Positions 1,015 to 28,004 of a stretch of 32,000 nt of DNA are shown here, in pieces. Origin of the DNA: Raphidiopsis brookii D9 (GTDB taxonomy: Bacteria; Cyanobacteriota; Cyanobacteriia; Cyanobacteriales; Nostocaceae); the NCBI GenBank assembly GCA_000175855.1, contig ACYB01000007.1, forward strand, positions 1-32,000. The letters are read 5' to 3'. The notes beneath the pieces were generated by a model. It saw only the letters and a program-made list of their open reading frames with translations, was not told where the DNA came from and did not search any database. Position numbers and translations under genes: made by a program. Every line of letters starts with the position of its first letter. Position 1 is the first letter of the stretch.

Positions 1015-1052
1015 ATTTCTCGTTCAAGAGCGATCGCTCTTGAACGAGAAAT
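1015..1052. repeat. 38-bp perfect palindrome centred on a HIP1 site; possible bidirectional terminator
   Basis: ATTTCTCGTTCAAGAGCGA|TCGCTCTTGAACGAGAAAT is its own reverse complement. The centre is GCGATCGC (1030-1037) and the + strand runs straight into TTTTT. It lies about 100 nt after the stop at 912. Confidence 0.7.
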
Positions 1053-1520: not shown

Positions 1521-3755
1521 ATGTCTAATTTGGCAGGAATTGATTTAGGGACTACAAATAGTCTTATCGCTTTCAAACTGGTTCAACCAGAAGTCGTAAC
1601 TGCTGATGACAACAGAGCTCCTGAAAGAACATTAACGCCTTCTGTTGTTGCTTGGGAGCAAAATGGTTTTGTAGTGGGAGAAAAAGCTCGTAACCAGTCA
1701 GTGGCCAATCCAGAAAAGGTGGTCAGATCTATCAAACGTTTGATGGGGAGAGATTTTGATGATCCTAATGTTCAAGAACACTTATCACAATTCTCTTTTA
1801 AAGTTACCCAGCATAGTGAGGGTGCTAAAAATAGCATCTCAGTCTGGTTAGATGGTAAAGAATACCAACCAGGAGATATATCAGCGGAGATCCTCAAAAA
1901 AGTTGTCCAAAACGCCCAAAATTACCTAAGAAAACAAAATAGAGAAAGTCAAATTACCCATGTAGTTGTCACCATCCCAGCTTACTTTAACGATAAACAA
2001 AGACATGCAACTGAGCAAGCTATTTACAAAGCAGGATTAGATCCCATCGAATTGCTCTCGGAACCAACCGCAGCGGCAATTTCCTATGGTTTTAAACCTG
2101 ATGAATCAGATGTCGTCAAGACTATTTTGGTTTATGATTTTGGTGGAGGTACCTTTGACTGCTCTCTAATTACAGCAGTAGAAAACCGTTTTATCGAGTC
2201 TGGTAAAGCAGGGGATTTATGGTTAGGAGGTGATGATATTGACTCCCAGATTACTAAGTTCGTTTTAAAACAGGTGGCACAGGAATGGGATATTGATATA
2301 GATTCTCTAATTGAGAAAATGCCTGAGTCACAGCGTCTTCGTTTTATGAGGGAGCTAAGTGAATCCGCAGAACAGGCAAAAATTTCCCTGAGTGGTAGTA
2401 ACTCAGCCCACATTATTCCGAACACTCCTCTGATTGATGAAGAGGGAATGGTAGTTCCAGTAGACGTGAGAATTACCCGCGAGCAGTTTGAGAAGATGAT
2501 TGAGCCAATGATAGATCGCACCATTGCTATCTGCTTGGATGCCCTAAAATTTTCAGACTATCCATTGGAAGCAATTGATATCGTTCTTATGGTAGGTGGT
2601 TCATCTCAAATTCCCCTGGTTCAACGTAAGCTTCGTGAATCCTTTGGCAAGGAAAAAGTGGTAGTTCACCCTCGTCCTATGTACGCTGTGGCTGAAGGGG
2701 CAGCTATTGTAGCGGCTAGTGGTATTCAGAAAGTTATCACCGTAGGGCGGGACTACTTTATTGAGCTAGTTGACAAGCCAGGACACAAAATAATTGAGCG
2801 TGGTGAGCAACTTCCGGTCAGCAAAAAACATACTTTTACTACTGAAGCTGATGGACAATGTCTCATTCACCTCAAATTTTTCACTTCAGATCAGGTAAGT
2901 GAGAACATTAATCATAGAGAAAAAAATGAGCGTATAGGAGATATGTGGTTGGTTCTTGACCAACCTTACCCAAAAGGAACAGAGATATCTCTCACAGCAG
3001 AATTGGATGAAAAGAACAGTTCTCTCCACATTTCAGCCTGTCTTAAACATAATCCCTCTGTTAAATTGAGTACTTCATTTTTACGTGGAAACCGGGATCA
3101 AATAACAAATGAAAGACTTGAAAAACTACTTGAAGATATAAACAAAGACCTAATTTTAACAGAATATGGGGTCAAAAATATCAGCCAGATAGCAGCTGAA
3201 ATAGTTCGCATTTCTCAGAATATGATTGGTAAGGATGGAACTGTTATCCTTGAAAGGAAAATGGAGGCAGAAAAAAAACTGCGAGAATTACAAATGATTT
3301 CTTCGAGGGACAATAGGCAGGTTGAATACTATATTAGTACATTCAAAATGGTTCTTGAATTGTGTCCTTTCCTTTTGTCTGAGACACAGAAATCACAAAT
3401 GCAAGATCTAGTCGAAAAACTGCAAAAGGCAAAAGAAGAACAAGACTTGAAGGATATACAAACATATTGTCAACAAGCACAAGTAGAACTCGAAAATTTA
3501 CTGAGTAGTGAGAGCCGTAGTTCATCTTTAATTCAACTCATATTGTTTACAATAGAAGCAATTGAAATTGCCAATCATCGAGACCAAACTCAAGCAAACT
3601 TAATGAGATCTAAGCTGGGTCAGGTATTGAATGCGATGGAGCGTGGTAATGAAGATGATGCAAATATTTTGTTACGAGAGTTACTACCCTATGTTGAACA
3701 CTGGGTCTCGCAAGACAGGGAAGGATCGAAGATTTATACAGGAATACATTCCTAA
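1521..3755 (+). CDS. Atypical Hsp70-family ATPase (744 aa) with a non-canonical C-terminal helical region
   Basis: Actin-fold/Hsp70 NBD motifs are present: GIDLGTTNS, VTIPAYFND, VYDFGGGTFD, LMVGGSSQIPLVQ. I did not see the canonical DVLLLDV-type linker or an EEVD tail. The last ~250 aa are rich in E/K/Q/L. Confidence 0.9.
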   Translation: MSNLAGIDLGTTNSLIAFKLVQPEVVTADDNRAPERTLTPSVVAWEQNGFVVGEKARNQSVANPEKVVRSIKRLMGRDFDDPNVQEHLSQFSFKVTQHSEGAKNSISVWLDGKEYQPGDISAEILKKVVQNAQNYLRKQNRESQITHVVVTIPAYFNDKQRHATEQAIYKAGLDPIELLSEPTAAAISYGFKPDESDVVKTILVYDFGGGTFDCSLITAVENRFIESGKAGDLWLGGDDIDSQITKFVLKQVAQEWDIDIDSLIEKMPESQRLRFMRELSESAEQAKISLSGSNSAHIIPNTPLIDEEGMVVPVDVRITREQFEKMIEPMIDRTIAICLDALKFSDYPLEAIDIVLMVGGSSQIPLVQRKLRESFGKEKVVVHPRPMYAVAEGAAIVAASGIQKVITVGRDYFIELVDKPGHKIIERGEQLPVSKKHTFTTEADGQCLIHLKFFTSDQVSENINHREKNERIGDMWLVLDQPYPKGTEISLTAELDEKNSSLHISACLKHNPSVKLSTSFLRGNRDQITNERLEKLLEDINKDLILTEYGVKNISQIAAEIVRISQNMIGKDGTVILERKMEAEKKLRELQMISSRDNRQVEYYISTFKMVLELCPFLLSETQKSQMQDLVEKLQKAKEEQDLKDIQTYCQQAQVELENLLSSESRSSSLIQLILFTIEAIEIANHRDQTQANLMRSKLGQVLNAMERGNEDDANILLRELLPYVEHWVSQDREGSKIYTGIHS

Positions 3756-3848
3756 TTAATTAATTTATTTACCCTGACAATACACTTGCCAAATCATACA
3801 CCAAAACTTGGAAAATAAGGTTATTAATTTAACTGGTGTTTTCCAAGT

Positions 3849-4403
3849 ATGTATATTCACAAAAAATTACTCATGAAAAGCAGAATTTGCGTGGTTTGTA
3901 GCTCTCCAATGTTGGAAGATTCTATTTGCAAAAACTGTGGGACAAATCTATCCACAATTTTAATGCTGGAAGGATTACCATCACGAAAAACAACATCCTC
4001 GGAAAAGGCAAAAATTTTACCCGATCAGATTAGTTTAGTGGTTTTAATTCTACTGCTAGGAACTGGAGTCGGAGGGTTCGCCTACTCTTTGTTATTTAGG
4101 CGACAATCACCAACTGTTCAAGTTCAAAATCAACCGACCATTAAAGCAACCATTCAAGAATTAAAGGTACAACCTCCTTCCCCCAATGTAATTTCTAGAC
4201 AACCTCATCAGAAAGGTTGCGGAGGCTTTTATTATACGGTGCGTCGCAGAAATTCTCTCTCACTTATTGCTTCACGTTTTTACGGAAATGGAAGTTTAGT
4301 GAAATTTATAGTCAATGCCAATCCCAGCTTGAAAAACAGAGAAGACACTCTGTATATAGGTGAACAGTTGTTTATCCCAAATCGTGAGGAATCTTGTCGA
4401 TGA
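3849..4403 (+). CDS. Membrane protein with an N-terminal zinc ribbon, one TM helix and a C-terminal LysM domain
   Basis: CVVCSSPMLEDSICKNCGT is a CxxC...CxxC pattern. The hydrophobic stretch ISLVVLILLLGTGVGGFAYSLLF is a likely TM helix. The C-terminal YYTVRRRNSLSLIASRFYGNGSLVKFIVNANPSL...LYIGEQLFIP is LysM-like. The start could instead be the internal Met at 3873. Confidence 0.75.
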   Translation: MYIHKKLLMKSRICVVCSSPMLEDSICKNCGTNLSTILMLEGLPSRKTTSSEKAKILPDQISLVVLILLLGTGVGGFAYSLLFRRQSPTVQVQNQPTIKATIQELKVQPPSPNVISRQPHQKGCGGFYYTVRRRNSLSLIASRFYGNGSLVKFIVNANPSLKNREDTLYIGEQLFIPNREESCR

Positions 4404-7018
4404 AACCAATTATAAATCTGTTTAAATCCCTATCCCAGTTTTTACTCAAAGGTGTTAATTTATCCCGCATTTTTTTGGATAAAGTCTCTGAATCTAAGTC
4501 AGACGCTCACAAAATTGAGTTGGTAGCAAAAAATCAATATTCTTTGGAACAGAAATATAAGACTGAGACTGAAAATGGATATTGGGAATTTCAAGAACTT
4601 GATGAGGCGATCGCATTATCAGATAAAATACTGAATAGATGGTCGCTGAGACCGAATTTGTTTGAGGTGATTTTGCGTCAATTATTTGAAGTTAATTCTC
4701 TTTTAAAAAAGCTTAAGAAGCAAAAAATTAGACTTGTTGGAGCTGCGGAAAAAGTTGCTCAGGCTCAAAATCTTGAAGCAGCATCCTGGAATAATCCTGA
4801 GCAAGATGAGGCATTATTCAATGCTAAAGACCTGTATCATAATTGCTATATTTTGGTTGAAAACCCGAAATTTTTACAAGCAGTCAACCGGTGTAAACAA
4901 CAACTTGACATACATGGACAGTTCAATAGTTTTGTGAAACAAGCTAAAGACTTAATTAGTAATTGGAAATTTCAAGAGGGGCTACAAAATTTAAGAAGTG
5001 CTGAAGAGTTGTTTGTAACATTATCCCTACAAGAAGAGATTGCATTTTGCTTGGGTCAAATTGAGTTGCAAGAAGAATTTGAGATGATCCAAACAGAAGT
5101 GTATAACTTAGCCCAGATGAAGGAATTTCAAGAAGCATTTAACAAACTTGAATCCATCTTGATTAAGTTTCCTTACCCAGATGGCAAAGAATTACAGGCA
5201 AAAATATATCAGATTATTGAGGGTAAAAAACGCTTTCAAGATGCACTTATTGCCGAAAAGCAAGGTGACTTAGACCAGGCTATGGATCAATACAAAAAAG
5301 CACTCAATATTTTGCCACAGTTAACGGAATGTAAGATTCGTCTAGCAATTATAGAAATAAAATCTCACAAATGGGAGGAAGCACTTTCTTATGTTGAAGG
5401 TCTGACTGTTGAAAGAGCAACTTACATTCGTGGATTTGCTTATGCCCAGCAAGAAAAATGGGAACAAGCTGAACAAGAATGGAGTTCTCTGTCTGATGCT
5501 GACACAAAGTCCCTATGTATTACGCTGATTAAAAGACAGAAATTATTCAAAATTCAAGAAATAGAGTGCTTTGTTAATGCGGGACAATTTGAGCAAGCTA
5601 AGCTGGCCAGTAAATCATTTCTAGATATATTTGGTCTGGATGACCTAGTGAAAAAAAATCTTGATAAACACATTCAACCCATGCTGAGTCAAATGTTTGA
5701 GAAGTCTCTCTGGGAAAATGAAAACTGGCAGGAGATAACCAAAAAAGCAGAGGAAACTTGGTTGGAATATCCCGATATCAGATCCTTACACAACTGGACT
5801 GTAGCTTCCTATTATTTGGCTCAAATAGATCCAAATAAACTATTGGAATTAATCACTCCCTGGTCTGCTGCTTTGGCAAATATTAACCAAGATCCTTCAT
5901 TACAAAATCTATTTTGGATGGGAAATAATACTGTCGACCTAAAAGAGGTATTCTCAGATCTAAAACAAACTCTTGATCAATTAATTGATCAAGTTAAAGA
6001 TAAAAATATTGAACAGTACTTCCAGTTACGAGATCACTTTCGTTTGGAGTTTACGGCCATAGAATCAATGGGAAATCCACCAATATCTGGAGTCAAACTC
6101 AATCACCTATTTCTCACTCCAGGCTGTTATAAACATTTTATTACCAGTTTACTGAATGATCCTTCATCTTCTATAGAAGAATTATACGATGGACTACCAC
6201 AGGAATCACTATACACAGCTTGGGGACTTGCAGTAGCAGCTTGTTTGGAAGGGGATGTGGAACGAGCTATTAAAATTAAACCACAAGGCAATCCCAGAAC
6301 GGATGCGGAAAAATATGGCTATCAATTTGTCTGTTATCATCAAGGATGTTACTATCTTGGGAAAAACCTTTGGCGCGAATCAGTATTTCCTCTTCAACAA
6401 GGTAAACCTCTAATTACATTGTCTTCCCAAAATTCTGATAGGATAGACCAACTCTGTGAAAAACAGCGTAAAGAAATTGAAGATTTGTCCGAACATCTTG
6501 AGTTTAGTGAATTTTGGTATGATCTTCTACAAACTAACTCCTCTAAGCTATATTTCAGCGAGTATAAGGCTAAAGAGGTTGTGAAAAAGATTGCTGACAA
6601 AACAATGACGGAAAATAAAGGTTTGCAAGAATTAAGAAAAATAAGTAGTATTTGTCCAGATAATCCTGTAGTAGATGATTACATTAACAGGATTAGCTTT
6701 AGTTTAGAACTAGAAAAAGTGCTTGAACAAATGCAGGAGGCAAACTTTCGAGAAGCACTAAACATGACCAAAAAATCGCCCCACCAGGAAAAAATTAAAA
6801 TTACTTTACTGGAGATCTGTTTAGAACTATTTAATAAGATTTCTAAGGAAGTTGAACCCCAAGAAATACCATGGACAGAAGTACCTCGATCAAAATTGAT
6901 ATTGATGTGTAATTTGGTATTATTCATGTACGATCTTGACAGCACCACGGTAGATTATCAAACCTACCGAGATTATCAAGCTATGCGTTCTAGACTGACA
7001 GGTTCGGATTATTATTAA
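4400..7018 (+). CDS. Large all-helical TPR-like protein (about 872 aa), function unknown
   Basis: The long ORF has ATG at 4400 overlapping the upstream TGA (ATGA), with GAGGA about 9 nt upstream. The track's TTG at 4394 is an alternative start. TPR-like segments include ALIAEKQGDLDQAMDQYKKALNILPQ...KWEEALSYVEGL. I recognised no catalytic motif. Confidence 0.75.
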   Translation: MKPIINLFKSLSQFLLKGVNLSRIFLDKVSESKSDAHKIELVAKNQYSLEQKYKTETENGYWEFQELDEAIALSDKILNRWSLRPNLFEVILRQLFEVNSLLKKLKKQKIRLVGAAEKVAQAQNLEAASWNNPEQDEALFNAKDLYHNCYILVENPKFLQAVNRCKQQLDIHGQFNSFVKQAKDLISNWKFQEGLQNLRSAEELFVTLSLQEEIAFCLGQIELQEEFEMIQTEVYNLAQMKEFQEAFNKLESILIKFPYPDGKELQAKIYQIIEGKKRFQDALIAEKQGDLDQAMDQYKKALNILPQLTECKIRLAIIEIKSHKWEEALSYVEGLTVERATYIRGFAYAQQEKWEQAEQEWSSLSDADTKSLCITLIKRQKLFKIQEIECFVNAGQFEQAKLASKSFLDIFGLDDLVKKNLDKHIQPMLSQMFEKSLWENENWQEITKKAEETWLEYPDIRSLHNWTVASYYLAQIDPNKLLELITPWSAALANINQDPSLQNLFWMGNNTVDLKEVFSDLKQTLDQLIDQVKDKNIEQYFQLRDHFRLEFTAIESMGNPPISGVKLNHLFLTPGCYKHFITSLLNDPSSSIEELYDGLPQESLYTAWGLAVAACLEGDVERAIKIKPQGNPRTDAEKYGYQFVCYHQGCYYLGKNLWRESVFPLQQGKPLITLSSQNSDRIDQLCEKQRKEIEDLSEHLEFSEFWYDLLQTNSSKLYFSEYKAKEVVKKIADKTMTENKGLQELRKISSICPDNPVVDDYINRISFSLELEKVLEQMQEANFREALNMTKKSPHQEKIKITLLEICLELFNKISKEVEPQEIPWTEVPRSKLILMCNLVLFMYDLDSTTVDYQTYRDYQAMRSRLTGSDYY

Positions 7019-7161
7019 ACCATTGACTGTTAAAATCATCATGGTTATCCATGCTTCCACTATCGAGCTTTGTTTGAAGACCTTGGGTTTACAAGTTATC
7101 TTTATTCGTTTTGCTTAGTAGCTTTGCTTTTTATCTCAATTGTTTATTAGGAGCAAAAATT

Positions 7162-7497
7162 ATGCCATCGTCTCATGCCAATCCTTATAAGGTTCTGAAT
7201 ATTACTCAAACCGCTTCAAAGGTTGATATAGTCAAAGCTGTTGCTATAGCAATGAAACTGAATGAATATCCCCTAAATGTTATTGCGTCTGCTCAAAAGC
7301 AACTTATAAGCACTAGGCAGCGTGTCTGTGCGGACTATTTGCTGCCCATATTTTCAAAAGTTATACGGTTCAAGAGGTCAGACTTGTCACTTTTGGAAAG
7401 TCCTACTCCACCTCTTGAGTTTTTACCAGAACTTGATGGTATAAATGAGGCAATTCATGATATTAACGGGTTTTTCTCCTTAGAAATGTTTGGATAA
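7162..7497 (+). CDS. J-domain-like protein lacking the HPD motif (111 aa)
   Basis: ATG at 7162 is preceded by AGGAG at 7149-7153. NPYKVLNITQTASKVDIVKAVAIAMKLNEYP...AQKQLISTRQRVCADYL follows J-domain helix I-III spacing (xPYxVLxIxxxASxxxIKxAY...HPD...AYxxLxDxxxRxxYD), but EYP replaces HPD. Confidence 0.6.
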   Translation: MPSSHANPYKVLNITQTASKVDIVKAVAIAMKLNEYPLNVIASAQKQLISTRQRVCADYLLPIFSKVIRFKRSDLSLLESPTPPLEFLPELDGINEAIHDINGFFSLEMFG

Positions 7498-7582
7498 GGT
7501 GTTGACACTCCCCGCTCTAAAGAGTTGACAACGCTAATTTTTTCTACCTTATCCTCCGTCATAATGGAAATAGCCATCTCAA

Positions 7583-8182
7583 GTGAATATGTTTAATCAA
7601 TTTGTTCAATTACTACTTCCTAATGCAAAATATATAAAAAAAATTGCATTTGATCGGATTCTGAGACCTTTTCGGGATAAGCAGTCTGCAACCGATCTAA
7701 TATCTGAATCTACGGAAACTTTGGAATTAAGCACTAAACAGCGTGACCAGATAATTGAAGAAATAAGAATCCTCCTGAAAAATGAAAAGACTTTACAACA
7801 AACCCTAAAAAAAGAACAGGATCAGAGGAATACTGCTAATGAACAGCTATTTTTGGAACTCCTAGGTATATTTGATACTCTGGAATTTCTAGTCGATTAT
7901 TTAAGTAACAGTCCGGAACCTAGTGCAAAATCTATTAAACGCTTATCAAAGCAGTTAGAAGTTTTACAGAGGAAACTTGTTGGTATACTTGAACAAAGGA
8001 AGGTAGAATTAATTGAGGATTTAAATCATACTAAACCTGATTTTAACCTATGTGTTGTTGTAGACCGTGAAGTCCGTAATGATCTGGAAGAACAGACTAT
8101 TACAAAAGTGGTTAAAAAGGGTTTTCGTATTGAAAATAGGGTTCTACGTCCCATTGAGGTAATCACATCTAAGCAACAATGA
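7583..8182 (+). CDS. GrpE-like nucleotide-exchange factor (divergent)
   Basis: It has a coiled-coil N-terminus. LFLELLGIFDTLEFLVDYL matches the GrpE LLPVxDxLERAL segment, and the C-terminal VVKKGFRIENRVLRPIEVITSK matches the GrpE beta-domain signature (KGYxLxxRVLRPAxVxV). The start is GTG at 7583 or ATG at 7589. Confidence 0.7.
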   Translation: MNMFNQFVQLLLPNAKYIKKIAFDRILRPFRDKQSATDLISESTETLELSTKQRDQIIEEIRILLKNEKTLQQTLKKEQDQRNTANEQLFLELLGIFDTLEFLVDYLSNSPEPSAKSIKRLSKQLEVLQRKLVGILEQRKVELIEDLNHTKPDFNLCVVVDREVRNDLEEQTITKVVKKGFRIENRVLRPIEVITSKQQ

Positions 8183-8382: not shown

Positions 8383-9696
8383 ATGAGTTTAGAAATTAGT
8401 TTACAACCCACCCTAAAAGAAATTGCCCAAAAAACCCGTTTAGCTGCTCTTAATTTATCCCTATTAACCAGTAAACAGAAAGATTATGCTCTTGATACAG
8501 TTGCTTTGGCTTTAGAGTCTGCTCAAGAAGAAATCCTTCAGGCAAATATAGCTGATTGTCAAACTGCAATGTCTCAGGGTATCAGTAAATCATTATATAA
8601 ACGATTGTATTTAGATTCTAATAAACTACAAGAAGCGATCGCTGGTGTAAGAGATCTAGTCAAACTAAAGGATCCAGTGGGTCAAGTTCAAATCCATCGA
8701 GAAATTGACAGGGGATTAATTCTCAAGCGTATAACCTGTCCCTTGGGTGTGCTGGGGGTTATTTTTGAAGCTAGACCAGAAGCTGCTATTCAAATTGTTT
8801 CCCTGGCAATTAAATCAGGGAATGGAGTCATTCTTAAAGGAGGGAGAGAAGCAATAGGTTCTTGTGATGCCATAGTAAAGGCGATTAAACAAGGTTTATC
8901 CAAGACCGATATTAACCCGGATGTGGTACAGTTATTAACCACCCGAGAAGAAATATTAGAACTTTTAAATTTAGATAAATATGTAGATTTAATCATTCCT
9001 AGGGGTTCAAATTCCTTTGTCAGATTTGTGCAAGAAAATACTCGAATTCCAGTATTGGGTCACGCGGATGGAATTTGTCATCTGTATGTAGATAAAGCAG
9101 CAGATATTCATAAGGCAATTGATATTACTGTAGATGCCAAAACCCAATATGCAGCTGCATGTAATGCCATTGAAACCTTACTAGTACACAGTAGTATTGC
9201 CCAGGAATTTTTGCCCCAAGTTGCATCAGCTTTAGAATCTGAAAATGTAGAACTAAGGGGAGATAACCGAACCTTGGAAATATTACCAAAAATTGAATTG
9301 GCCACGGAAGAAGATTGGCAAACAGAATATAGTGATTTGATTTTGTCCATTAAAATAGTTGATTCCTTAGAAGACGCTATCGCTCACATCAGTGAGTATG
9401 GTTCACGGCATACCGAAGCGATAATCACAGAAGACTTGATAGCAGCCAATACCTTTCAAGCATTAGTCAATGCAGCAGGAGTATATCAAAATTGTTCCAC
9501 TAGATTTGCTGATGGTTTTCGTTATGGTTTTGGTGCAGAAGTGGGAATTAGTACCCAACAAATGCCACCTCGGGGACCTGTGGGTTTAGAAGGGTTGGTA
9601 ACCTATAAATATCATATAATTGGGGATGGACACATTGTGAAAACCTATACAGGCGATCGCAGGAAAGGGTTTACCCATAAAGATCTAGGAATCTAA
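8383..9696 (+). CDS. proA: Glutamate-5-semialdehyde dehydrogenase (gamma-glutamyl phosphate reductase)
   Basis: Full-length ProA-like sequence ([46 protein letters not shown]). I prefer the internal ATG at 8383 (MSLEISLQ...) over the GTG at 8311. Confidence 0.9.
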
Positions 9697-10667
9697 GAGT
9701 GTGATTGGGCAATACTGTAAAGTTTTCGAAAAGAATGCAATTTTTTAAAGAATCTGTCAAAATCAAAACTCAAGGGGTCAACCTTACCATTAGCCACATC
9801 TACAGCTCGATGAGTGGTGATTCTTTCATCGGGAACTTGGCTTTGGGCAATCAACCAAGCTAGGGAATTGTATTGCTCGTGTGTATAACCACTATGTTCT
9901 CTAATATCTCTTTTTCCCCAACCATCAGGAGGTGTTTCTAAAGAAACATGATAGGCAAAATTATTAACGGAAGGAGCTAATTTAGGATTAGTTTGAACTG
10001 TCTCTATTATGCCATCTGTATTTTTAAAAACTGAATTACCAGCGCCAAATGCTCTTTTATCGGGTGGTACTAAATAAATTACAGTTCCATCCCGGGCAAT
10101 GATGGCATGATAACTAGCTTGAATATCTTCATCCACATTATGGTTTTGAAAGTAATTGATTGCACTGCTAGCAGAATATGTTGTTTCATGTAAAACAATA
10201 ATTGGTTGGTTACTAACCGCCATACCCTTAGTATCCCGACTAAATCTTTCCCCATAGTTACTGGGATGCACTTGTGCTGCTGCTAACCTAGGTTGATACT
10301 TACTAAAGTTATTAGTTGTGATGTATTTTTTCACAACCTTTTTTTGTTTAATTCTTTCGATAAGTGACTGAGAAAAATTTTGTATTTGTATTGATTTCGG
10401 TTGTATTGTTTTTGATTGTGCCTGTAATAATTGTTTTGGGTATGGATTCACAACTACTGGTTGAGATGTTTCAGAATCACTCAAGGAGTTCTGTCCATAC
10501 TGTTCCCTTAGTACACCGGTAAAAATTACTATAATAAGGGTAGTCAACATCAAAAAGATAATGCTCACTCTTGTTGTCCAATCCTTTGCTCCTCTGACTA
10601 TCAGTTCGTGGGAAATTAACCTTTGCACAAACGAACTAACAGGTGAACTAAAATATTTCCACTTCAT
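9693..10667 (-). CDS. Membrane-anchored N-acetylmuramoyl-L-alanine amidase (Amidase_2/PGRP fold)
   Basis: It has an N-terminal TM segment ([20 protein letters not shown]). The C-terminal [10 protein letters not shown]...[17 protein letters not shown]...[10 protein letters not shown]...[11 protein letters not shown]...ITTHRAVD is typical of AmpD/PGRP-type amidases. Confidence 0.8.
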
Positions 10668-19936: not shown

Positions 19937-21971
19937 TTACCAAAAATATCCTTCTTTGATACTTGTTTCTCTTTTTCCTGAATCATACTCTAAAACATAT
20001 TCTCGTGCGATCGCCTGATGTTCTCTGAGTATTGCTATTTCTTTCCTGGCTATTTCTGTATCTGTGGATAGTAAAATTACCTGATGGCTTGCTGTGGGGA
20101 AATATCTTTCCAATAGGTTATTTCTATGGGATGAGTCTAATCTTCCTAGGGGGGTGTCAATTGCCACGGGTAGTTGTTTTCCGGACACTTTTGCTAAACC
20201 CCATAAAAAGGCGATCGCCAAAAGTTGTTTTTCTCCTGCGGATAGTCTATGTTTAGGGACTAGTTTACCGTGGAGATCATACAATGAGAGTTGGAAACTT
20301 TTAGAATCAATTCCCACTCTATAGACCAAATCTGATTTATGTAGTAAATACAAAAAACAGTTTTTTACTTCCTCTTCTAATTTATTTAATTTCCTTAAAG
20401 TTAGTTTTTCTTTAAACAACTTTAAATTTTCTTGTACTCGATGGACTGAATCAATCAAATGTTGATTACTTCGATATTTAAGATTTTTGTTGGTATAACT
20501 ATTCAACTCTTTTTTAGTTTTATCAATGGTGGTAGTTAAATTGATGAACTGGCGATTGAGTATTTCCAGATTGGTATTTGCTCGACTCCATTCTTTTTCA
20601 GCCAGTTCTCGGATTTTTTGTAGTTTGATGTATGCTTCTGGTGGAGCAGCAGCTTGAATTTGCCTATCTAGACTGACAATTAATTCTAGACAATTGCGCA
20701 GTTCTAGCAGGAGGTTTTTGGCATTATTTTGGACTGTTGGCAAGCTATAGACCAGACGGTCTAAAGAAGTCAAAGTTTCCTCGTCTGCATGCAAGAAACA
20801 CTCTTGATAATTATTGGCTTTCACTGGTTCACTATCATATAATTTAGTAGATAAATCTACATATAAACTATCAATATCTTGAACCAGGAAATTTTCAATA
20901 CTGGTGATTGTTTCCAGTTCTAGATTCAATTGATTAAGGAAGGAAAGCAATCTTTTATCTCTGGTGGTTAAAATATCTCTAGCCACTTGATTTTGTAACT
21001 GTATTTGTTTAAGTCTTAACTCTTTTTGACCCTGGAGCTGAACTTGAGATAATAAATTACTAATTAACTGTAAAGGTAAAACACCGTCAGCCAATTGGCA
21101 CAAAGTTTTCCGGAGATTTTCCACCTTGCCAACCTGAGTTTCCCTCTCCCTATCCAGTTGACTGCGTTCCCCAGCAATTTTGCCACCTTCTGATATATAC
21201 TTATTTAGGGCTTCCTCATATTTAAACTTTAAATTTTTTACCTTGCTCCTCTAGGTCTTGCAGCTGAGCTTTCTGAGAATTTTTTTGCTCCATTTGTTCA
21301 TGTAAACGGTTTTCCAATTCTTCCAGCTTAGCCAAATCCCGATCATCAGCATTTTCCTTTTTTTTGCGATTGACTAATATTTCCAAATCTAAGGACAATT
21401 TATCTACCAATTCCAATCCCAAGAGTCCATTAATTGCATCCACCACTATGGGAGTAGGAACTTCCTGTTCTGCTAGTTCCTTGACCTGCTCACCATCAAA
21501 TAAAAATAAATTAGAAATACCCAAGGGCAATATATTTTCTATGTATTCGTCCCAGATATTGGCTAAAGACTGGGGCCAGGTTTCGTCCTCCCCCAAAATT
21601 CCTAGGGAATCCTTACCATCCTTGGGGTTTTTTTCCCAAGTTCTCACCACCCGATACCTCACGGGTTTATCATCCTCAATGTGTTCAAAAACCAACTCGA
21701 TTCTGGTTTTATTAATCGGGTCAGCTTTGTTATTCACACACTGGGTCAGAAAGTCACCATAACTTAAATTTCCCCTGGTGGAACATTGGGCCCTTGCTCC
21801 ATATAATGCCAAGCGAATAGCATCCATCAGGGTGGTTTTTCCTCCTCCATTCATCCCCCCCAAAAGAATAATTGGACGAATGTTATTCCGATCGATTCTG
21901 GTATCCAAATTAATGACTTGCTTACCAGCATAAGGACCAAAGTTTTGCAGTACAAGTTCTAAAAAAATCAT
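19937..21971 (-). pseudogene. dndD: DNA sulfur modification protein DndD (SMC-like ATPase), interrupted by a +1 frameshift
   Basis: The N-terminal ORF 21222..21971 carries Walker A (GGMNGGGKTT). The C-terminal ORF 19937..21124 carries LSAGEKQLLAIAFLWGL and Walker B/D-loop (LPVAIDTPLGRLD). The C-terminal frame stays open upstream to about 21250 and reads VKNLKFKYEEALNKYISEGGKIAGERSQLDRERETQVGK-VENLRK. Removing one base from the T6 run at 21234-21239 (A6 on the coding strand) joins both parts into one ~675-aa DndD. Confidence 0.85.
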
Positions 21972-22029
21972 AATTCCAGCAGTTCAAAAATCAAGATAGC
22001 AAGGATCACTAATAATCTAAGAATATTCT

Positions 22030-23673
22030 CTATTCCTCTTGCTTATATTCATGCTTCCTATATTTCATGCTCGCAAAACTCAGTGGTTGCTCTAGGGGTT
22101 TTTTATCTTCAGTCTTATATTCAGTGTTATTTTCCTCCCCCACCCGTGGGATATCTAATTGTTTAAATGCCTGACGAATTGTCGCTACATTACCTTCACT
22201 AGCTGCTAGACGTAGATCTCTTTTAAAATGGGCATAATTAATAGCCTCCTGTTGGGAACGGGAACTAGTTTCAAAGCACTTTTCTAAAGTTTCAAAAATA
22301 CCTACTCGGCGGGTTTTTTTCTTGAATTGTCTTTCTGTGTCTAGTAACTTTGCCATCAACTCTAATTCCATAGAGTTACCTGCACAGATTTGTTCTAATA
22401 CCTCCCACTCATCCCCACCTAATAAACTATAATCTGCGCCAGGTCGAGAATCTTTAAATTTTTCTCCTGTCACTTGTTCATATATTTGGGGTAAACTGTC
22501 ATCAAATTCGTGTTTTTCTTCCAGCCAAATACGGCGAATTTCACTCAGTTCTTCCATGGAGATTAGGGTGATATTGGCCATGTTTTCCGGTGCATTCTCT
22601 CTCATTTCTTTTTGTGCTGTTAATAATTTCCTTAACCAGTATTCTCGCCAAGATTTTGTATATGGCCCAGGTATGGGTTCAACCGACATTTCCCCATTTT
22701 TATTCCGTTCAAATAATTGAACTTCCCCCCAAATGCGACGAAAATCTCTTTTTTCTCGGTCATTTTCAATATCTAATTCCTTCCTAAACTCAACTATTGG
22801 TTGCATCCACTCTTTTTCTTGATCATTTTGAATCATTGCACTCAGGGATACATCACGATCAACTAGGGTACAAACCCAACAACCAAAACGAGAACTACCA
22901 CAACTTGGAGTAGATGTATCAACAACCAGCGGACATTCATTATCCTCCGTTGATTGCCTATACATCACAAATAGATCCTTGTTACTGTGTCCCCAAGGAT
23001 TATCCCACTGCATCAAATATAGCCAAACTTCATCAGTCCGCCAATCTTCTATGGGACTGTAAACCAGGGAATTGGGTAAATTGCCATTGGGACTCAGGCG
23101 ATCGCGCAGTCTTTTAGCCTCCATTTTTTTCATGGTAGCAGCGCGATTTTTACTTTCGGTTTTGCGAATACCCAGAACCAGGATTGTTTCTCCACTTTCC
23201 CTAACCATATTACGAATAAAACGGTTAGATGGACTTATTTTTAGACGTTCAGTACACCAGCGGAATTTTTGACGGGGAGCAGGATATCCCTTACCAATTA
23301 GACCCACCCAATAGGTCTCCTTTGTTTCTGGTTGTAAAAGGTGAGCTTGCATGGGAACTTGCTGTTCTTGGGCAGCTTTTTTGATATTTTCATGAGAAGT
23401 GCGTACCCAAGCGGAAACGTATGGATTTTCTACGCCTGTGTCTGTCGTAATGACGTGAATAGTCTTAGCTCTTTTTTCTGGTGGTAAATTAGAAATAGCG
23501 TTCCAAATCAGTTGTAAGATTGCCGTACTGTCTTTTCCTCCAGAATAACCAACCACCCAGGGTATGTCGTCCAAACAGTATAGTTGCTGAATTTCTTTTG
23601 TAAGAACTTGAATATACTCCACCAGCTCAGCTACAGTTCGATTCGGCGGGGTTTTACTTTCTGATGTCACCAT
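22030..23673 (-). CDS. dndC: DNA phosphorothioation protein DndC (PAPS-reductase-like ATP pyrophosphatase)
   Basis: It has a PP-loop (GYSGGKDSTA) and a Cys cluster (PSCGSSRFGCWVC). The 547-aa size and its position upstream of dndD-dndE also fit. Confidence 0.9.
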   Translation of the reverse strand: MVTSESKTPPNRTVAELVEYIQVLTKEIQQLYCLDDIPWVVGYSGGKDSTAILQLIWNAISNLPPEKRAKTIHVITTDTGVENPYVSAWVRTSHENIKKAAQEQQVPMQAHLLQPETKETYWVGLIGKGYPAPRQKFRWCTERLKISPSNRFIRNMVRESGETILVLGIRKTESKNRAATMKKMEAKRLRDRLSPNGNLPNSLVYSPIEDWRTDEVWLYLMQWDNPWGHSNKDLFVMYRQSTEDNECPLVVDTSTPSCGSSRFGCWVCTLVDRDVSLSAMIQNDQEKEWMQPIVEFRKELDIENDREKRDFRRIWGEVQLFERNKNGEMSVEPIPGPYTKSWREYWLRKLLTAQKEMRENAPENMANITLISMEELSEIRRIWLEEKHEFDDSLPQIYEQVTGEKFKDSRPGADYSLLGGDEWEVLEQICAGNSMELELMAKLLDTERQFKKKTRRVGIFETLEKCFETSSRSQQEAINYAHFKRDLRLAASEGNVATIRQAFKQLDIPRVGEENNTEYKTEDKKPLEQPLSFASMKYRKHEYKQEE

Positions 23674-23678
23674 GGTTG

Positions 23679-23698
23679 TAATTGGGGATAATTGGGGA
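23679..23698. repeat. Tandem decamer (TAATTGGGGA x2; TCCCCAATTA x2 on the dndC strand) 5 nt upstream of the dndC start codon
   Basis: There are two perfect adjacent copies at 23679-23688 and 23689-23698, inside the 187-nt divergent dndC/DGQHR intergenic region. Confidence 0.6.
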
Positions 23699-23860
23699 TG
23701 ATTTTATCAATATCAGTAGGGATTCAAGTTGGGAATCTAAATCAGACTTTACAAGGCTAATTTCAAGAAAGTATTGACAATTATAGTTTCATACCAGTAT
23801 GTAGTATTTTGGCAAAATACACAACCTAATCTCCTATTAAGTTTTTAGAAAATTAACTTC

Positions 23861-25413
23861 ATGGCAAAAATACCTCAAGATAACCGTAACATTTTTCCTC
23901 AGTACCCAGTAGGTCAACCTCCCCAACTCCCATCTCAAATTATGGTTCAACAAACGAAAATGGGTAATGTTACCGCTTATCTAGGCTCAGTTACTTTAGA
24001 ATGGTTTGCAAAAAAGGTTAAGTTCGCCTCTACTTTACCAATATTGCAAAATAAATATAATCCGGTTACGGATAACATTGAAATTGACGCGGATAGTATT
24101 GAGCAGATTCAAGAGCGTTCTCTGGATTGGTCACGTCAAAGTTCATTGTTACAATATCTAGCTATACATAGAAATCATAAGTTTCCACCAGTACTAGTTG
24201 TAATCAGTCAACCCTGGGTGAATGATGAAAAATCGGACTTATGGGATGGGGAGGGTCGTGCCAAAAAAGCAACTACTGATTTTATCCCTTCAGATGCAAA
24301 TAGTCATATTGGTTTATTGAATGTAGCGGAAGAAGATACAAGTATTTATGTTTTAGATGGTCAACATAGATTAATGGGAGTTCAGGGTTTATTAGAACTG
24401 TTAGAAAATGGAAGAATAGCAAGATATAACCGAGATAAAATCCCCACTGATAGTTATATAGATCTGTCAGAGTTGGTAGACCAATATAGGATTGATGTTG
24501 ACTATCTCAAACAATTACCCCAGGAAAAATTGGCATTGAATTTATTTGCGCAGTCAATAGTGGAGAAACCTACTCAGAAGCCAAACAGAGAGTCAGATCA
24601 ATTTTTGTGCATGTGAATTTAATGGCTACCCCCTTAACTAAAGGTCAACTGATCCAATTAAATGAAGATAATGGTTTTGCAATTGTAGCCAGAAAAATAG
24701 CAGTAAGTCATCCCCTGTTAGCGCACAGAGAGAATCGGAAACCTCGGATTAACTGGAACAGCGCCACGGTAGCAGCTAACTCCACCGTATTGACCACATT
24801 ACAAGCTTTACAAGACATGTCAACTAAATATTTGGGATACAAATTTCCCCATTGGCAACCCCAAATTAAGGGATTGATTCCCATGCGTCCAGACCCTGAC
24901 CAGTTAGGGGAAGGAATGAGGGAATTTCAACAGCTATTTGACCATTTAGCTACCCTACCTAGTTATAAGATTTTAGATCATGAGGATACACCTGTTTTAC
25001 GGCGATTCAGTTTTGAAAAAGGCGGTGGTGAGGGCAATATTTTATTTCGTCCTGTGGCACAAGTTGCCTTAGCAGAAGCTTTAGGAATTTTAGTTTTTAA
25101 AAATGGACTCTTATTAGAAAACATTTTTAAAAAGTTGCAAAAATTTGATCTTCAGGGTGGTTTTAGTCAAATGGAATTTCCTAATTCTGTATGGTATGGA
25201 GTTTTATATGATCCGAATAAAAAGCGAGTTCAAGTGTCTAAAAAAGAATTGGCAGTAAAATTATTAATTTATCTATTGGGGGGAATCAAAGACCGGATGG
25301 AAATTGCACAACTACGCAAAGCACTAGCAAGTGCTAGAACCAGAGAAGATCGTGCCATGGACTTTGATGGGAACTGGGTTAGTGATCAAGAGGTAGGACT
25401 TCCATCCATATAG
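23861..25413 (+). pseudogene. DGQHR-domain (DndB-like, ParB/Srx fold) protein of about 519 aa, interrupted by a -1 frameshift
   Basis: ORF 23861..24616 contains YVLDGQHRLMGV. The frame of ORF 24607..25413 is open upstream from 24502 and there reads KIGIEFICAVNSGETYSEAKQRVRSIFVHVN (the FxxxN second motif of DGQHR proteins). Adding one A to the A5 run at 24525-24529 gives a continuous ...LKQLPQEKIGIEFICAV... protein. Confidence 0.8.
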
Positions 25414-25448
25414 CATCTATATAGGAGTTAGATTACAAGCGGGGGGGA

Positions 25449-25922
25449 CTAGGATAAAAATCTAGAGAGATCAAATTCTCCATCTTCCCCATCAATTGTT
25501 TGATGTTCACGCTGTAAAAACAATAGAATTCTCTCCGTATAATTCACGGATCCTCTGATTTGAGTCTCTAAAATCTCTAACCCCCCATTAGCATATTCTT
25601 CAAAAATTTGATTACGTTGTTTTTCTTCTTCGTCATTATTAGGTGATAAAAGTTGAATATTCTCTGTTTCTACAATTGCCAGTAATTTGATCAACACATC
25701 ATATCCTGAGGTTGCAAAAACCTCTAATCTGATGGGAGAGGGATCCCTTTTCGAGATCTCTTCAAATGGAATACGCTTCTGATATTTAATACCTAAAGCA
25801 GCAGCAAAAGCAATCACATCAGCAAAGGTTTGAAAGGGACCTTGGGATCCATCATTAGCAACTAAAGCCTTAACAAAATCTGCTTTATCTCCAGCAATTC
25901 TAATTCTACTAGTTTCAGCCAT
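25449..25922 (-). CDS. 157-aa protein of unknown function; from memory it resembles the 'dnd system-associated protein 4' family (unverified)
   Basis: This clean ORF is the last gene of the convergent trio (FQTFADVIAFAAALGIKY...IFEEYANGGLEIL). The family assignment comes from recollection only, not from a search. Confidence 0.45.
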   Translation of the reverse strand: MAETSRIRIAGDKADFVKALVANDGSQGPFQTFADVIAFAAALGIKYQKRIPFEEISKRDPSPIRLEVFATSGYDVLIKLLAIVETENIQLLSPNNDEEEKQRNQIFEEYANGGLEILETQIRGSVNYTERILLFLQREHQTIDGEDGEFDLSRFLS

Positions 25923-25994
25923 AACTAGAAAACAGTTAACTCCTTTCTACTGCTACAATTTCACTGTACTCGAAACCATTAGGACTTTGACGGG

Positions 25995-28004
25995 TTAGGT
26001 AATATTTTCCCTACCTATTTGCAAAAAGTCCTCTTCACAGTTGGGTTTAGAAGAGTAATAGGTCAGGACATATTCCTTACCAATTCGCTCCATAATTTCG
26101 GACTCAACTTCCTCTCTCCATTGGGTCTTGGTCACCAGCACTACTAACTGATTAGCCAACTTGGGAATGGTGTGTGCAATGTGACGACGAGAGTTAGCAT
26201 CTAAACTGCCAAAGGGTGAATCCATTACTATGGGGAAGGTACTACTATCGGGAACCATCATGATTTTTTTCTTTTCACTCCATTCCCTTACTTTATCAAT
26301 AATACTGGCGATAAATGATAAACTGAGAATTTGATTTTCCCCGGTGGATGCTGCAACAGGAGCTTCTATTCCAGTTGTATTCTCTACTAAGGTCAGTTCA
26401 TATTTTTCGCTAATTTTGGGAATATATGGTGTAACGGAAATTTCTGAGAATATTTCTTGCACTCGTTTCTCTAATTGCAATCTAAATTGTTTTTCTTGTC
26501 TATTTTTCACTTCAGTTAATATATCAATAGCATCTTGGGTAGCAATAATTCGACGCTGGGCCAAAATCTGTCGTCCTTCATTTTGTTTTTGCTTGGCAAT
26601 TTGTTTGACTACAAGATCAATTTCTGTATTTAAGTGAGAAATTTCTTTTTGGTTTGATCCTTGCTCCCGATTTAAATCGTCAATTCTTGCTTCTATTTCA
26701 TCCAATCTCTTTTGTAACCCGCTAATGTCTTCATTTGGGTCTTTCCTCAAAATCTCCTCAATGCTATCTAAGTTCATCTCTATATCAGAAAGTGATGTCT
26801 TCAGCTGATAAATTCTTTCTTGTTCTCGATTGATCATCTCCAAAAATAATTGAGCTTGTTTTTCCAGATCATCTATTTGCGCTCCCATTCTAATTGCAGT
26901 TTCTTCCACGGAAGAAGATCCAGTTTTTCTCAAAAGTGATTTAACGTGAAAATGTCCATTCCCTCCTTCTTTTAGTTCTGCGCCACAAATGCACCTACCA
27001 CTTTTCATCAATTCGCTGACAAATTCTCTGGAAATACCAGATTTTAATTGCCCGCGCTCTTTGAAAGCCACAATAATTTGTCTGAATTTAACTGTTGTCT
27101 CATTTAATAATAATGTGTATGCCTGTTTGGAAATAGCTCTTTTCAAACTCTCCTTGGTTTTTTTTAATTCATCATAACTGTTGCGTTTTTGACTTTCTAG
27201 ACTTTCCCTTCTTTCTTGTAAATCCCTAACCGAACTCAATTCTACCAATCTGGCACTGATATCCTTTTTAAAAACCTGTTGATTTTCTAAATCTTGAGCT
27301 ATTTCCGTTTGTCTTTGGGAAATTTTACTAATTTCTCTTTCTAGTGTACTTTCTTGTTTTAATAATTGTTTAGTTTCCGCATCCCCAATAGCTGCCAATT
27401 CACTGTCTAAAGTTTTTTTAGCCTCCTTTAAATGTTTGGTTGCCAGATCAATCACCTTAACACCTAAAAATATTTCCGTAGCTTCAGCAATTTCAGCTTT
27501 TTTATCAGAGCGGACAATTTCTTCTATTCTTTCTCCATCAAAAAAGAAGTATTGATGTAAACTTACGGGCAATATATTATTGATTATTTCCTCTGGTTGC
27601 TCAATAGGAAAATACCACTTACCATCATCCCCCACAATTTGAATTGTTAATTTAGTTTTGGTAGCATCAATAGTAGTGGGATTTTTATAAACCCGACAGT
27701 TACGTTTTGCCCGGTAGCGAACCCCTTCATGTTCCCAACCTACTTCTACCCAACATTCTACAGCTTGATCCTCTCCTACTTCTGAAATCGCACGTTTATT
27801 AACTAGCTGCTCTGTCACCGCAAAAGCAGCTGTAAATTTTTCATATAGCACCCAGGTGAATCCATTTAATAAACTGGTTTTTCCCGCACCATTATTACCA
27901 TGAATTATGGTGGTATTCTGAAACTCTCCACCTGCTATGGCAATTTCCGGTGTTTGTCCATAAAAGGAACGAAAATTACAAAATTTAATCGAAGTTAATT
28001 TCAT
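25995..28004 (-). CDS. Second DndD-like / SMC-Rad50-type ATPase (669 aa), intact
   Basis: It has Walker A (HGNNGAGKTSLLNGF), a ~400-aa coiled-coil-like E/K/Q/L-rich middle, a signature-like STGENQILSLSFIASII and Walker B/D-loop (FPIVMDSPFGSLD). The C-terminal block aligns by eye with the dndD C-terminus in this same window (DTPLGRLDSSHR vs DSPFGSLDANSR). Confidence 0.85.
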   Translation of the reverse strand: MKLTSIKFCNFRSFYGQTPEIAIAGGEFQNTTIIHGNNGAGKTSLLNGFTWVLYEKFTAAFAVTEQLVNKRAISEVGEDQAVECWVEVGWEHEGVRYRAKRNCRVYKNPTTIDATKTKLTIQIVGDDGKWYFPIEQPEEIINNILPVSLHQYFFFDGERIEEIVRSDKKAEIAEATEIFLGVKVIDLATKHLKEAKKTLDSELAAIGDAETKQLLKQESTLEREISKISQRQTEIAQDLENQQVFKKDISARLVELSSVRDLQERRESLESQKRNSYDELKKTKESLKRAISKQAYTLLLNETTVKFRQIIVAFKERGQLKSGISREFVSELMKSGRCICGAELKEGGNGHFHVKSLLRKTGSSSVEETAIRMGAQIDDLEKQAQLFLEMINREQERIYQLKTSLSDIEMNLDSIEEILRKDPNEDISGLQKRLDEIEARIDDLNREQGSNQKEISHLNTEIDLVVKQIAKQKQNEGRQILAQRRIIATQDAIDILTEVKNRQEKQFRLQLEKRVQEIFSEISVTPYIPKISEKYELTLVENTTGIEAPVAASTGENQILSLSFIASIIDKVREWSEKKKIMMVPDSSTFPIVMDSPFGSLDANSRRHIAHTIPKLANQLVVLVTKTQWREEVESEIMERIGKEYVLTYYSSKPNCEEDFLQIGRENIT

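Follow-up and report, generated by a model that had tools for sequence, protein, structure and literature searches.

Here we describe a five-gene operon, at positions 1521-8182 of a 32,000-nt stretch of DNA from the cyanobacterium Raphidiopsis brookii D9 (contig ACYB01000007.1, positions 1 to 32,000; hereafter the window), that encodes an atypical Hsp70 and four partner proteins. We put at about even the chances that this accessory, co-inherited cyanobacterial operon encodes a private Hsp70 machine, insulated from the housekeeping chaperones and working on the cytoplasmic side of the inner membrane. No description of the five-gene unit turned up in the literature consulted, nor is it reflected in the names given in databases ('Hsp70 family protein', 'peptidase M ... 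site', 'hypothetical'), and it appears to be undescribed as a system; a preliminary description of this DNA, made from its letters, had likewise known of no function for the architecture. The gene content, conservation, domain identities, motif changes and radiation co-induction set out below are observed directly. A check of the open reading frames (ORFs) of the window confirmed all five plus-strand genes where the preliminary description had placed them. The features of the unit are as follows.

1521..3755, plus strand: atypical Hsp70, 744 aa (Pfam and NCBIfam scores, alignment, AlphaFold2 (AF2) model)
3849..4403, plus strand: Zn-ribbon/transmembrane (TM)/LysM anchor, 184 aa from the first ATG (Pfam match to LysM)
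4400..7018, plus strand: all-alpha solenoid, 872 aa (weak TPR matches, AF2 model, family profile)
7162..7497, plus strand: J-like protein, 111 aa (J-domain helices I-III, family alignment)
7583..8182, plus strand: divergent GrpE-like nucleotide exchange factor, 199 aa (Pfam GrpE)
2049..2051, plus strand: codon for Glu177 of the Hsp70, aligned with E. coli DnaK R167 (1dkg and 2kho)
3732..3752, plus strand: extreme C-terminus of the Hsp70, with the family motif I-x-T-G-[LI]-x-[RK] (K-I-Y-T-G-I-H-S in the window)
1015..1052, plus strand: terminator-like hairpin with a 17-bp stem and the palindromic cyanobacterial octamer HIP1 (GCGATCGC) at its centre (scan and sequence)

The genes are separated, in order, by 93, -4, 143 and 85 nt. 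The negative value is a 4-nt ATGA overlap (cgATGAaac at 4400-4403) that places the solenoid start within the anchor stop codon, and 4-nt overlaps recur among related loci. A GGAG lies 8 nt 5' of the J-like ATG at 7162, and alignment of homologues favours ATG 3873 over 3849 as the start of the anchor gene. No site in the region looks more like a terminator than the hairpin at 1015-1052, whose 17-bp inverted repeat is perfect and is followed by a run of T residues. It ends the upstream unit and bounds the module's transcription unit on the left, and a plus-strand terminator scan found nothing comparable between the five genes. In 56 upstream regions there was no CIRCE element, no Anabaena-type LexA box and no common 8-mer except HIP1.

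A profile of the solenoid family was used to collect loci from a genome collection, and their neighbours were compared by tblastn and ORF clustering. This search found 78 solenoid loci, all of them cyanobacterial, spanning Nostocales, Pleurocapsales, Chamaesiphon, Planktothrix/Oscillatoriales, Leptolyngbya, Chroococcidiopsidaceae and metagenome-assembled genomes of Synechococcales. The conserved neighbourhood consists of exactly five ORF families, the solenoid included; no other neighbour occurs in more than 17 loci, and the flanks seen in the window, on either side, are not conserved at other loci. The order Hsp70, LysM protein, solenoid, J-like, GrpE is found in 48 of the 59 loci with enough flank; when six loci with a LysM-less second gene are added, 54 of the 59 keep five genes in the same order and on the same strand, and the other five are fragments. 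Because the order is shared so widely, the five-gene arrangement is far beyond chance. The preliminary description had proposed a self-contained unit with its own Hsp70, J-like and GrpE-like set, and had named synteny in related genomes in advance as the test of that proposal; both the five families and their order hold across the cyanobacteria. Furthermore, none of the loci examined has any of the four partner families away from the module, and the pairwise identities of each of the five families track those of the others (rho 0.71-0.94, 42 loci). An Hsp70 paralogue of this kind also occurs in Microcystis, Limnospira, Cyanobacterium aponinum, Crocosphaera, Spirulina and Lyngbya, and the Microcystis and Limnospira loci, fetched separately, contain the same five genes.

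The module is accessory and chromosomal. For example, Trichormus variabilis ATCC 29413 carries it (ABA20938.1), and Anabaena PCC 7120 has no member in that 90% cluster; N. punctiforme, which has a single GrpE (PMC9239167), must on that count be without it. Five loci (L053, L062, L064, L077 and L078) hold decayed or partial copies, with solenoid fragments, with or without a J-like gene, and no Hsp70, which suggests ongoing loss of the module in some Nostoc, Lusitaniella and Pleurocapsales genomes. The closest species representatives in the genome collection are about 40% identical to the window in the solenoid and about 54% in the Hsp70, and near-identical copies (96-98%) were found only in metagenome assemblies (e.g. 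JGI 3300044622; contig L083). The lineage of the window is low in GC (~38%).

The product of the first gene is a member of the Hsp70 superfamily (Pfam HSP70 PF00012, 2e-105, 353.7 bits against a gathering score of 20.6) that falls below the DnaK equivalogs (score/cut-off in bits: NF001413, 324/648; TIGR02350, 320/822; NF009946, 248/1019; NF009947, 276/1002) and also below the NCBIfam cut-offs for HscA (277 and 271 bits against 620 and 708). It comprises a nucleotide-binding domain (residues 1-400), a substrate-binding beta domain (SBD-beta; 403-520) and a nine-helix C-terminal domain (527-729), and its AF2 model has a predicted local distance difference test score (pLDDT) of 85.6 and a predicted template modelling score of 0.75. 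In the alignment to 1dkg and 2kho, the residues corresponding to the catalytic D8, K70, E171, D194 and T199 of DnaK are retained, and Glu177, at the R167 position, is at least 90-95% conserved within the family. In E. coli, R167 of DnaK contacts D35 of the DnaJ His-Pro-Asp (HPD) motif, as established by the 5NRO complex and by suppressor genetics. The terminal residues of the module Hsp70 form a beta-bridge in the AF2 model (pLDDT ~93). In its sequence this conserved tail resembles an Hsp70-binding peptide, with a hydrophobic core and a flanking basic residue, and it could dock in cis or act as a handle for the TPR-like region of the solenoid.

The J-like protein of the window scores only 12.7 bits against DnaJ (PF00226; gathering score 27.8), and so gives no Pfam hit. 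Nevertheless, we assign the product of gene 4 to a probable divergent J-like fold because all 24 aligned relatives touch Pfam DnaJ (best E 7.8e-6, still under the cut-off) and because the family profile retrieves almost exclusively J-domain structures from the PDB. The HPD position reads Y36-P-L-N39 in the window (nt 7267-7278), and HPD is missing in all 64 J-like sequences listed, where the position reads [Y/H]-P/S/A-x-[D/N/...], with a family motif of [Y/H]-P-x-[D/N]. Nostocales members have a C-terminal TPR extension. At four loci (L027, L055, L060 and L065) a TM helix and then one or two SPOR-like domains come after the J-like domain, and the SPOR match of L060 exceeds the gathering score (5.4e-5). 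Similarly, the product of gene 5 is apparently a GrpE-fold member (PF01025, 2e-18, 67 bits against 25.8) and not a housekeeping equivalog, as it lies below every GrpE equivalog cut-off (best NCBIfam score 42 bits against 176). Each chaperone was thus rightly described at the outset as divergent from its housekeeping counterpart, and with DnaK, HscA and GrpE scores all under their cut-offs, no HPD and a Glu at the R167 position, the module appears distinct from the housekeeping set.

The second gene encodes a bitopic protein whose N-terminus forms a Zn ribbon (C14-C30, nt 3888-3938) and is followed by a TM helix (residues ~61-83, nt 4029-4097) and a C-terminal LysM domain (residues 129-177, nt 4233-4379; PF01476, 1.5e-6, 28.4 bits against a gathering score of 20.9). 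In the family consensus the Zn ribbon reads CPVC-x9-10-CPNC-x-TDLS..R.L.ELP, and a single TM helix and a variable linker lead from it to a Cys-flanked LysM. LysM is present on the anchor in 60 loci. Six loci were at one point taken to lack gene 2; this was rejected when a Zn-ribbon and TM gene of 64-69 aa, without LysM and with 4-nt overlaps, was found beneath the ORF size filter. The Zn ribbon and TM helix are therefore the predicted invariant part of gene 2, and LysM is absent from one clade. A proposed tie between solenoid N-terminal length and the presence of LysM was inconsistent across loci and was dropped.

The solenoid is modelled by AF2 as about 43 helices (pLDDT 85.6). Pfam gives it only weak, single TPR matches (residues ~280-336), and matches of the family profile to PDB sequences are confined to positions ~230-340. 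The C-terminal ~480 residues hold most of the invariant Trp, His and Cys and show no likeness to a known family in Pfam, NCBIfam or the PDB profile search. The label 'TPR-like' in the preliminary description is thus apt for a short stretch, and most of this larger helical protein is novel; that neither the 872-aa nor the LysM protein belongs to a characterised family was borne out. The solenoid forms a compact family, with about 102 of 1.84 billion representatives matching at E<=1e-30, and searches of plasmids and phages returned no copies. Two homologues, P0308 and P0315, start with TM helices. Many orthologues are named 'Peptidase M, neutral zinc metallopeptidase site' at NCBI; Pfam, NCBIfam and the PDB profile revealed no peptidase domain or HExxH, and we regard the name as a pattern-match artefact.

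In addition to these comparisons, expression data are available from Limnospira indica PCC 8005, in which dnaK5 (_10362, 737 aa) is the sole dnaK scored as radiation-induced (PMC8400943). We mapped _10362 to _10358 to dnaK5, anchor, solenoid, J-like and GrpE in turn, on the basis of the length of dnaK5 and of pep, which corresponds to a convergent Peptidase_S9 gene of the same length beside GrpE in the Limnospira loci L081 and L082. Under gamma radiation, these five genes change 5.09-, 3.46-, 2.89-, 2.20- and 2.46-fold (p 3e-19 to 6e-5), and the adjacent convergent pep gene (_10357, 2058 nt) only 1.62-fold (PMC8400943 supplement). Given the common induction and its gradient, the five genes respond together, in a pattern typical of one transcript. 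The module Hsp70 is an additional copy in PCC 8005, one of four dnaK genes that are intact there (PMC8400943). The authors of that study flagged dnaK5 as needing further work and passed over its four partners.

From this evidence we infer a set of protein-protein contacts, an insulation, a client and a physiological role. The anchor, with a cytoplasmic Zn ribbon, one TM helix and usually a periplasmic LysM, would fix the assembly to the membrane and, in most lineages, tie it through LysM to peptidoglycan. The large alpha-solenoid, translationally coupled to the anchor, would be its platform or client, and the Hsp70 its engine, stimulated by the J-like protein of the module at an interface that has been rewired, HPD having become [Y/H]PxD on the J side and R167 having become Glu on the Hsp70 side. 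These paired changes are the reason for proposing insulation: the rewired interface would prevent cross-talk with housekeeping DnaJ and DnaK. The private GrpE would then reset the cycle. The likely job of such a machine may be the ATP-driven assembly, disassembly or repair of a solenoid-built, envelope-associated complex, turned on under stress, as Hsc70-auxilin acts on clathrin and HscA-HscB on IscU. The retained catalytic residues, the GrpE domain and the J-domain fold signal point to a working ATPase cycle, and the semi-conserved [Y/H]-P-x-[D/N], together with the R167 change in the partner, suggests an interface that is re-tuned rather than dead. Furthermore, the system is predicted to sit at the inner membrane because of the J-like fusions to TM and SPOR domains, the TM-bearing solenoids and the invariant Zn-ribbon and TM anchor, with peptidoglycan binding (LysM, SPOR) frequent but optional. 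An envelope tether through LysM and peptidoglycan had been suggested at the outset; the membrane anchoring stands, and the absence of LysM from one clade limits the peptidoglycan part.

Several points weigh against this interpretation. Loss of HPD could mean that the J-like protein gives no ATPase stimulation, by analogy with Pam16/Tim16. The predicted fold of the solenoid offers no functional clue, since its Foldseek matches are generic TPR scaffolds only, with TM-scores below 0.2 (0.10-0.17). Induction was recorded in a single organism under a single type of stress, to which many unrelated genes also respond, and the correlated identities of the five families would also follow from simple vertical descent.

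A bolder version, which we consider unlikely, is that the module represents a new class of membrane-tethered Hsp70 motor. Here the recoded J-Hsp70 interface would be orthogonal to the main chaperones, the Hsp70 tail would serve as a pseudo-substrate or TPR-receptor handle, and ATP hydrolysis would be coupled to a peptidoglycan-bound TM anchor to rebuild a damaged structure of the envelope. A link between the tail and a TPR receptor would be a bacterial counterpart of the eukaryotic EEVD-TPR pairing.

The module shares with the housekeeping DnaK-DnaJ-GrpE triad an Hsp70 that has both an SBD-beta and unaltered catalytic residues, together with a partner of the J type and an exchange factor of the GrpE type, and presumably also the ATP-driven cycle of binding and release. 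However, the module Hsp70 reaches at most half of any equivalog cut-off, and its helical C-terminal domain, ~230 residues long, has a conserved tail of its own; the J partner, which in its simplest form has ~110 aa, lacks not only HPD but also the Gly/Phe region, Zn-finger and client-binding domains of DnaJ; and the operon holds two extra obligate genes, for the anchor and the solenoid. A closer parallel is provided by dedicated Hsp70 systems (HscA-HscB-IscU, Hsc70-auxilin-clathrin and DnaK1-DnaJ3-GrpE; PMC9239167), in which a specialised Hsp70 and a private J protein serve one client or structure. The clathrin client is also an alpha-solenoid, and the DnaK1 system also acts at a membrane machine, the type IV pilus motor (PMC9239167). 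In contrast to the module, however, the J partners of these systems keep HPD, they have no Zn-ribbon/TM(/LysM) anchor and no such solenoid, and their genomic contexts (isc genes, pilBTC) differ. The conserved neighbours of the module include no isc gene, the hallmark of HscA/HscB, and no pil gene, that of DnaK1-DnaJ3-GrpE (PMC9239167). By analogy, then, the module would act as dedicated Hsp70 systems do, yet it falls within none of them.

HPD-less J-like proteins such as Pam16/Tim16 and ZipN/Ftn2/ARC6 likewise have a J-domain fold without the catalytic tripeptide. ZipN/ARC6 proteins consist of an N-terminal J-like domain, a TM helix and a periplasmic or intermembrane domain, a layout that the J-like-TM-SPOR variants of the module would resemble. 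The module differs from both groups in retaining the semi-conserved [Y/H]-P-x-[D/N] and in the R167 change of its partner Hsp70. FimV/HubP landmark proteins also combine an external LysM with a membrane span and an internal TPR-like scaffold, whereas in the module these elements are spread over two proteins in the reverse order (LysM being C-terminal) and coupled to a chaperone set, and no sequence relationship is detectable. An alternative that we regard as unlikely is that the module is a division-site or peptidoglycan-growth factor, recruited through LysM and SPOR, in which the Hsp70 assembles or recycles a cytoplasmic divisome or elongasome scaffold as a split analogue of FimV/HubP or FtsN-type proteins. 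SPOR-like domains of other bacteria bind denuded septal glycan, and their fusion to the J-like protein in several lineages, the LysM on the anchor at most loci, the J-like/TM/periplasmic-domain topology reminiscent of ZipN/Ftn2/ARC6, and a gene for a membrane-bound Amidase_2 protein two genes downstream in the window are all consistent with such a role. However, LysM is missing from one whole clade and SPOR is present in a minority only, the amidase neighbour is not conserved at other loci, no divisome gene is linked, and normally dividing relatives are without the module, namely PCC 7120 (from cluster membership) and N. punctiforme (from its GrpE count; PMC9239167). The filamentous or septal role first envisaged for the module also lacks support, as its presence in unicellular Microcystis, Pleurocapsales and Chamaesiphon shows that it is not restricted to filaments or septa.

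It is quite improbable that the module is a conflict or anti-phage system in which the anchor senses envelope or peptidoglycan damage on infection and the chaperones gate the solenoid as an effector or decoy. The patchy, accessory distribution and unconserved flanks would suit such a system, as would the gamma induction in Limnospira alongside restriction and CRISPR genes and the Dnd-like cluster elsewhere in the window, and Hsp70 and GrpE sets do occur in GTPase-centred conflict systems (PMC7159879). Those GAP1-N2 systems (Kaur et al. 2020, PMC7159879) resemble the module in their non-housekeeping Hsp70 with its own GrpE, DnaJ- or TPR-bearing partners and conserved neighbourhood, but have a GTPase and FNIII-repeat proteins at their core and are found mainly in actinobacteria and firmicutes; there is no TRAFAC GTPase among the five conserved families of the module. 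Nor do these families contain a GTPase, nuclease, protease, NADase or pore domain. PADLOC-DB 2.0 gave a best E of 0.003 (LeoC), then 0.012-0.05, with nothing for the Hsp70, solenoid or J-like protein, the loci are not within recognisable defence islands, and the conservation (mean pairwise identity of the Hsp70, 68%) is fairly high for a conflict system. With no copies on plasmids or phages, no PADLOC hit and no effector domain, the conflict role suggested in the preliminary description finds no backing.

It is very unlikely that the module couples chaperones to type IV pili or to the export of surface polymers, as DnaK1-DnaJ3-GrpE does in Nostoc and Synechocystis or SglK-GrpS in Myxococcus. 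Dedicated Hsp70 systems do couple type IV pilus motors to polysaccharide secretion in cyanobacteria (PMC9239167, PMC12288463), TPR-bearing J proteins serve in those systems, and a pilin-like gene lies near the Limnospira locus; against this, pilBTC is adjacent to the module in no locus, no export gene is found among its conserved neighbours, its J-like protein lacks HPD, and N. punctiforme, where DnaK1/J3 was defined, is without it (single GrpE; PMC9239167). Finally, it is scarcely credible that the Hsp70 is an ordinary extra stress DnaK paralogue with functionally unrelated neighbours, a view prompted by the several dnaK genes per cyanobacterium and the stress induction of dnaK5 but close to refuted by synteny, as the five-gene order is kept across cyanobacterial orders while flanks vary, overlapping start and stop codons occur, the five genes are induced together and the partner families do not occur away from the module in the loci examined.

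We also considered the All4981 operon of Anabaena PCC 7120, which encodes a filament-forming TPR protein of ~650 aa with two ATGA-overlapping upstream genes and is restricted to subsections III-V (PMC7002697). The All4981 primers and primer-encoded peptides (PMC7002697) match nothing in 82 loci, and the peptides are absent from the solenoid, anchor and Hsp70 families. Size and distribution differ as well, and PCC 7120 is outside the 90% cluster of the T. variabilis orthologue; on the evidence of the primers, size, distribution and cluster membership, the two systems were not equated. Another PCC 7120 protein, All4144, is a GrpE paralogue whose genomic context is not in the paper (bioRxiv 10.1101/2025.04.14.648684).

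Hsp70 specificity is normally explained by HPD-bearing J proteins, and here a widespread natural system seems to have recoded the J-Hsp70 interface and to hold its chaperone at an anchor in membrane and peptidoglycan. The module could thus become a model for the insulation of Hsp70 circuits, for the action of HPD-less J-like proteins and for the direction of chaperone power to the envelope. Its hosts are ecologically and economically important, including bloom-forming Microcystis, Limnospira/Arthrospira, and lichen and soil Nostoc, and its presence in some strains and absence in close relatives makes gain- and loss-of-function work straightforward.

Some further genes lie around the module. 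Two loci, L002 (Stigonema ocellatum) and L042 (Calothrix sp. HK-06), have an extra Hsp70-like gene within a few kb of it; that of L002 (15818-17161) is ~29% identical, and L002 also has another GrpE-like ORF. In Limnospira (L081/L082, 1-2300), a DnaJ-domain protein (357 aa) and a KAP/STAND-like NTPase are encoded on the opposite strand ~6 kb upstream of the module, a pair not seen at other loci. Within the window, the upstream ORF at 169-912 (247 aa) matches nothing in Pfam at E<=0.001 and does not recur beside the module elsewhere. Downstream, past proA, the minus-strand gene at 9693-10667 encodes 324 aa that comprise a hydrophobic segment at the N-terminus and an N-acetylmuramoyl-L-alanine amidase domain (Amidase_2); the same layout is present in the near-identical metagenome contig L083 and not at other loci. 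Further along, at 19937-28004 on the minus strand, is a Dnd-like DNA phosphorothioation/defence cluster, with the following members.

19937-21124, minus strand: Dnd-like cluster member (weak SMC_N)
22030-23673, minus strand: DndC-like (PAPS_reduct, 4.5e-12, and a small Sp-DndD motif)
25995-28004, minus strand: DndD-like (AAA_23/SMC_N)

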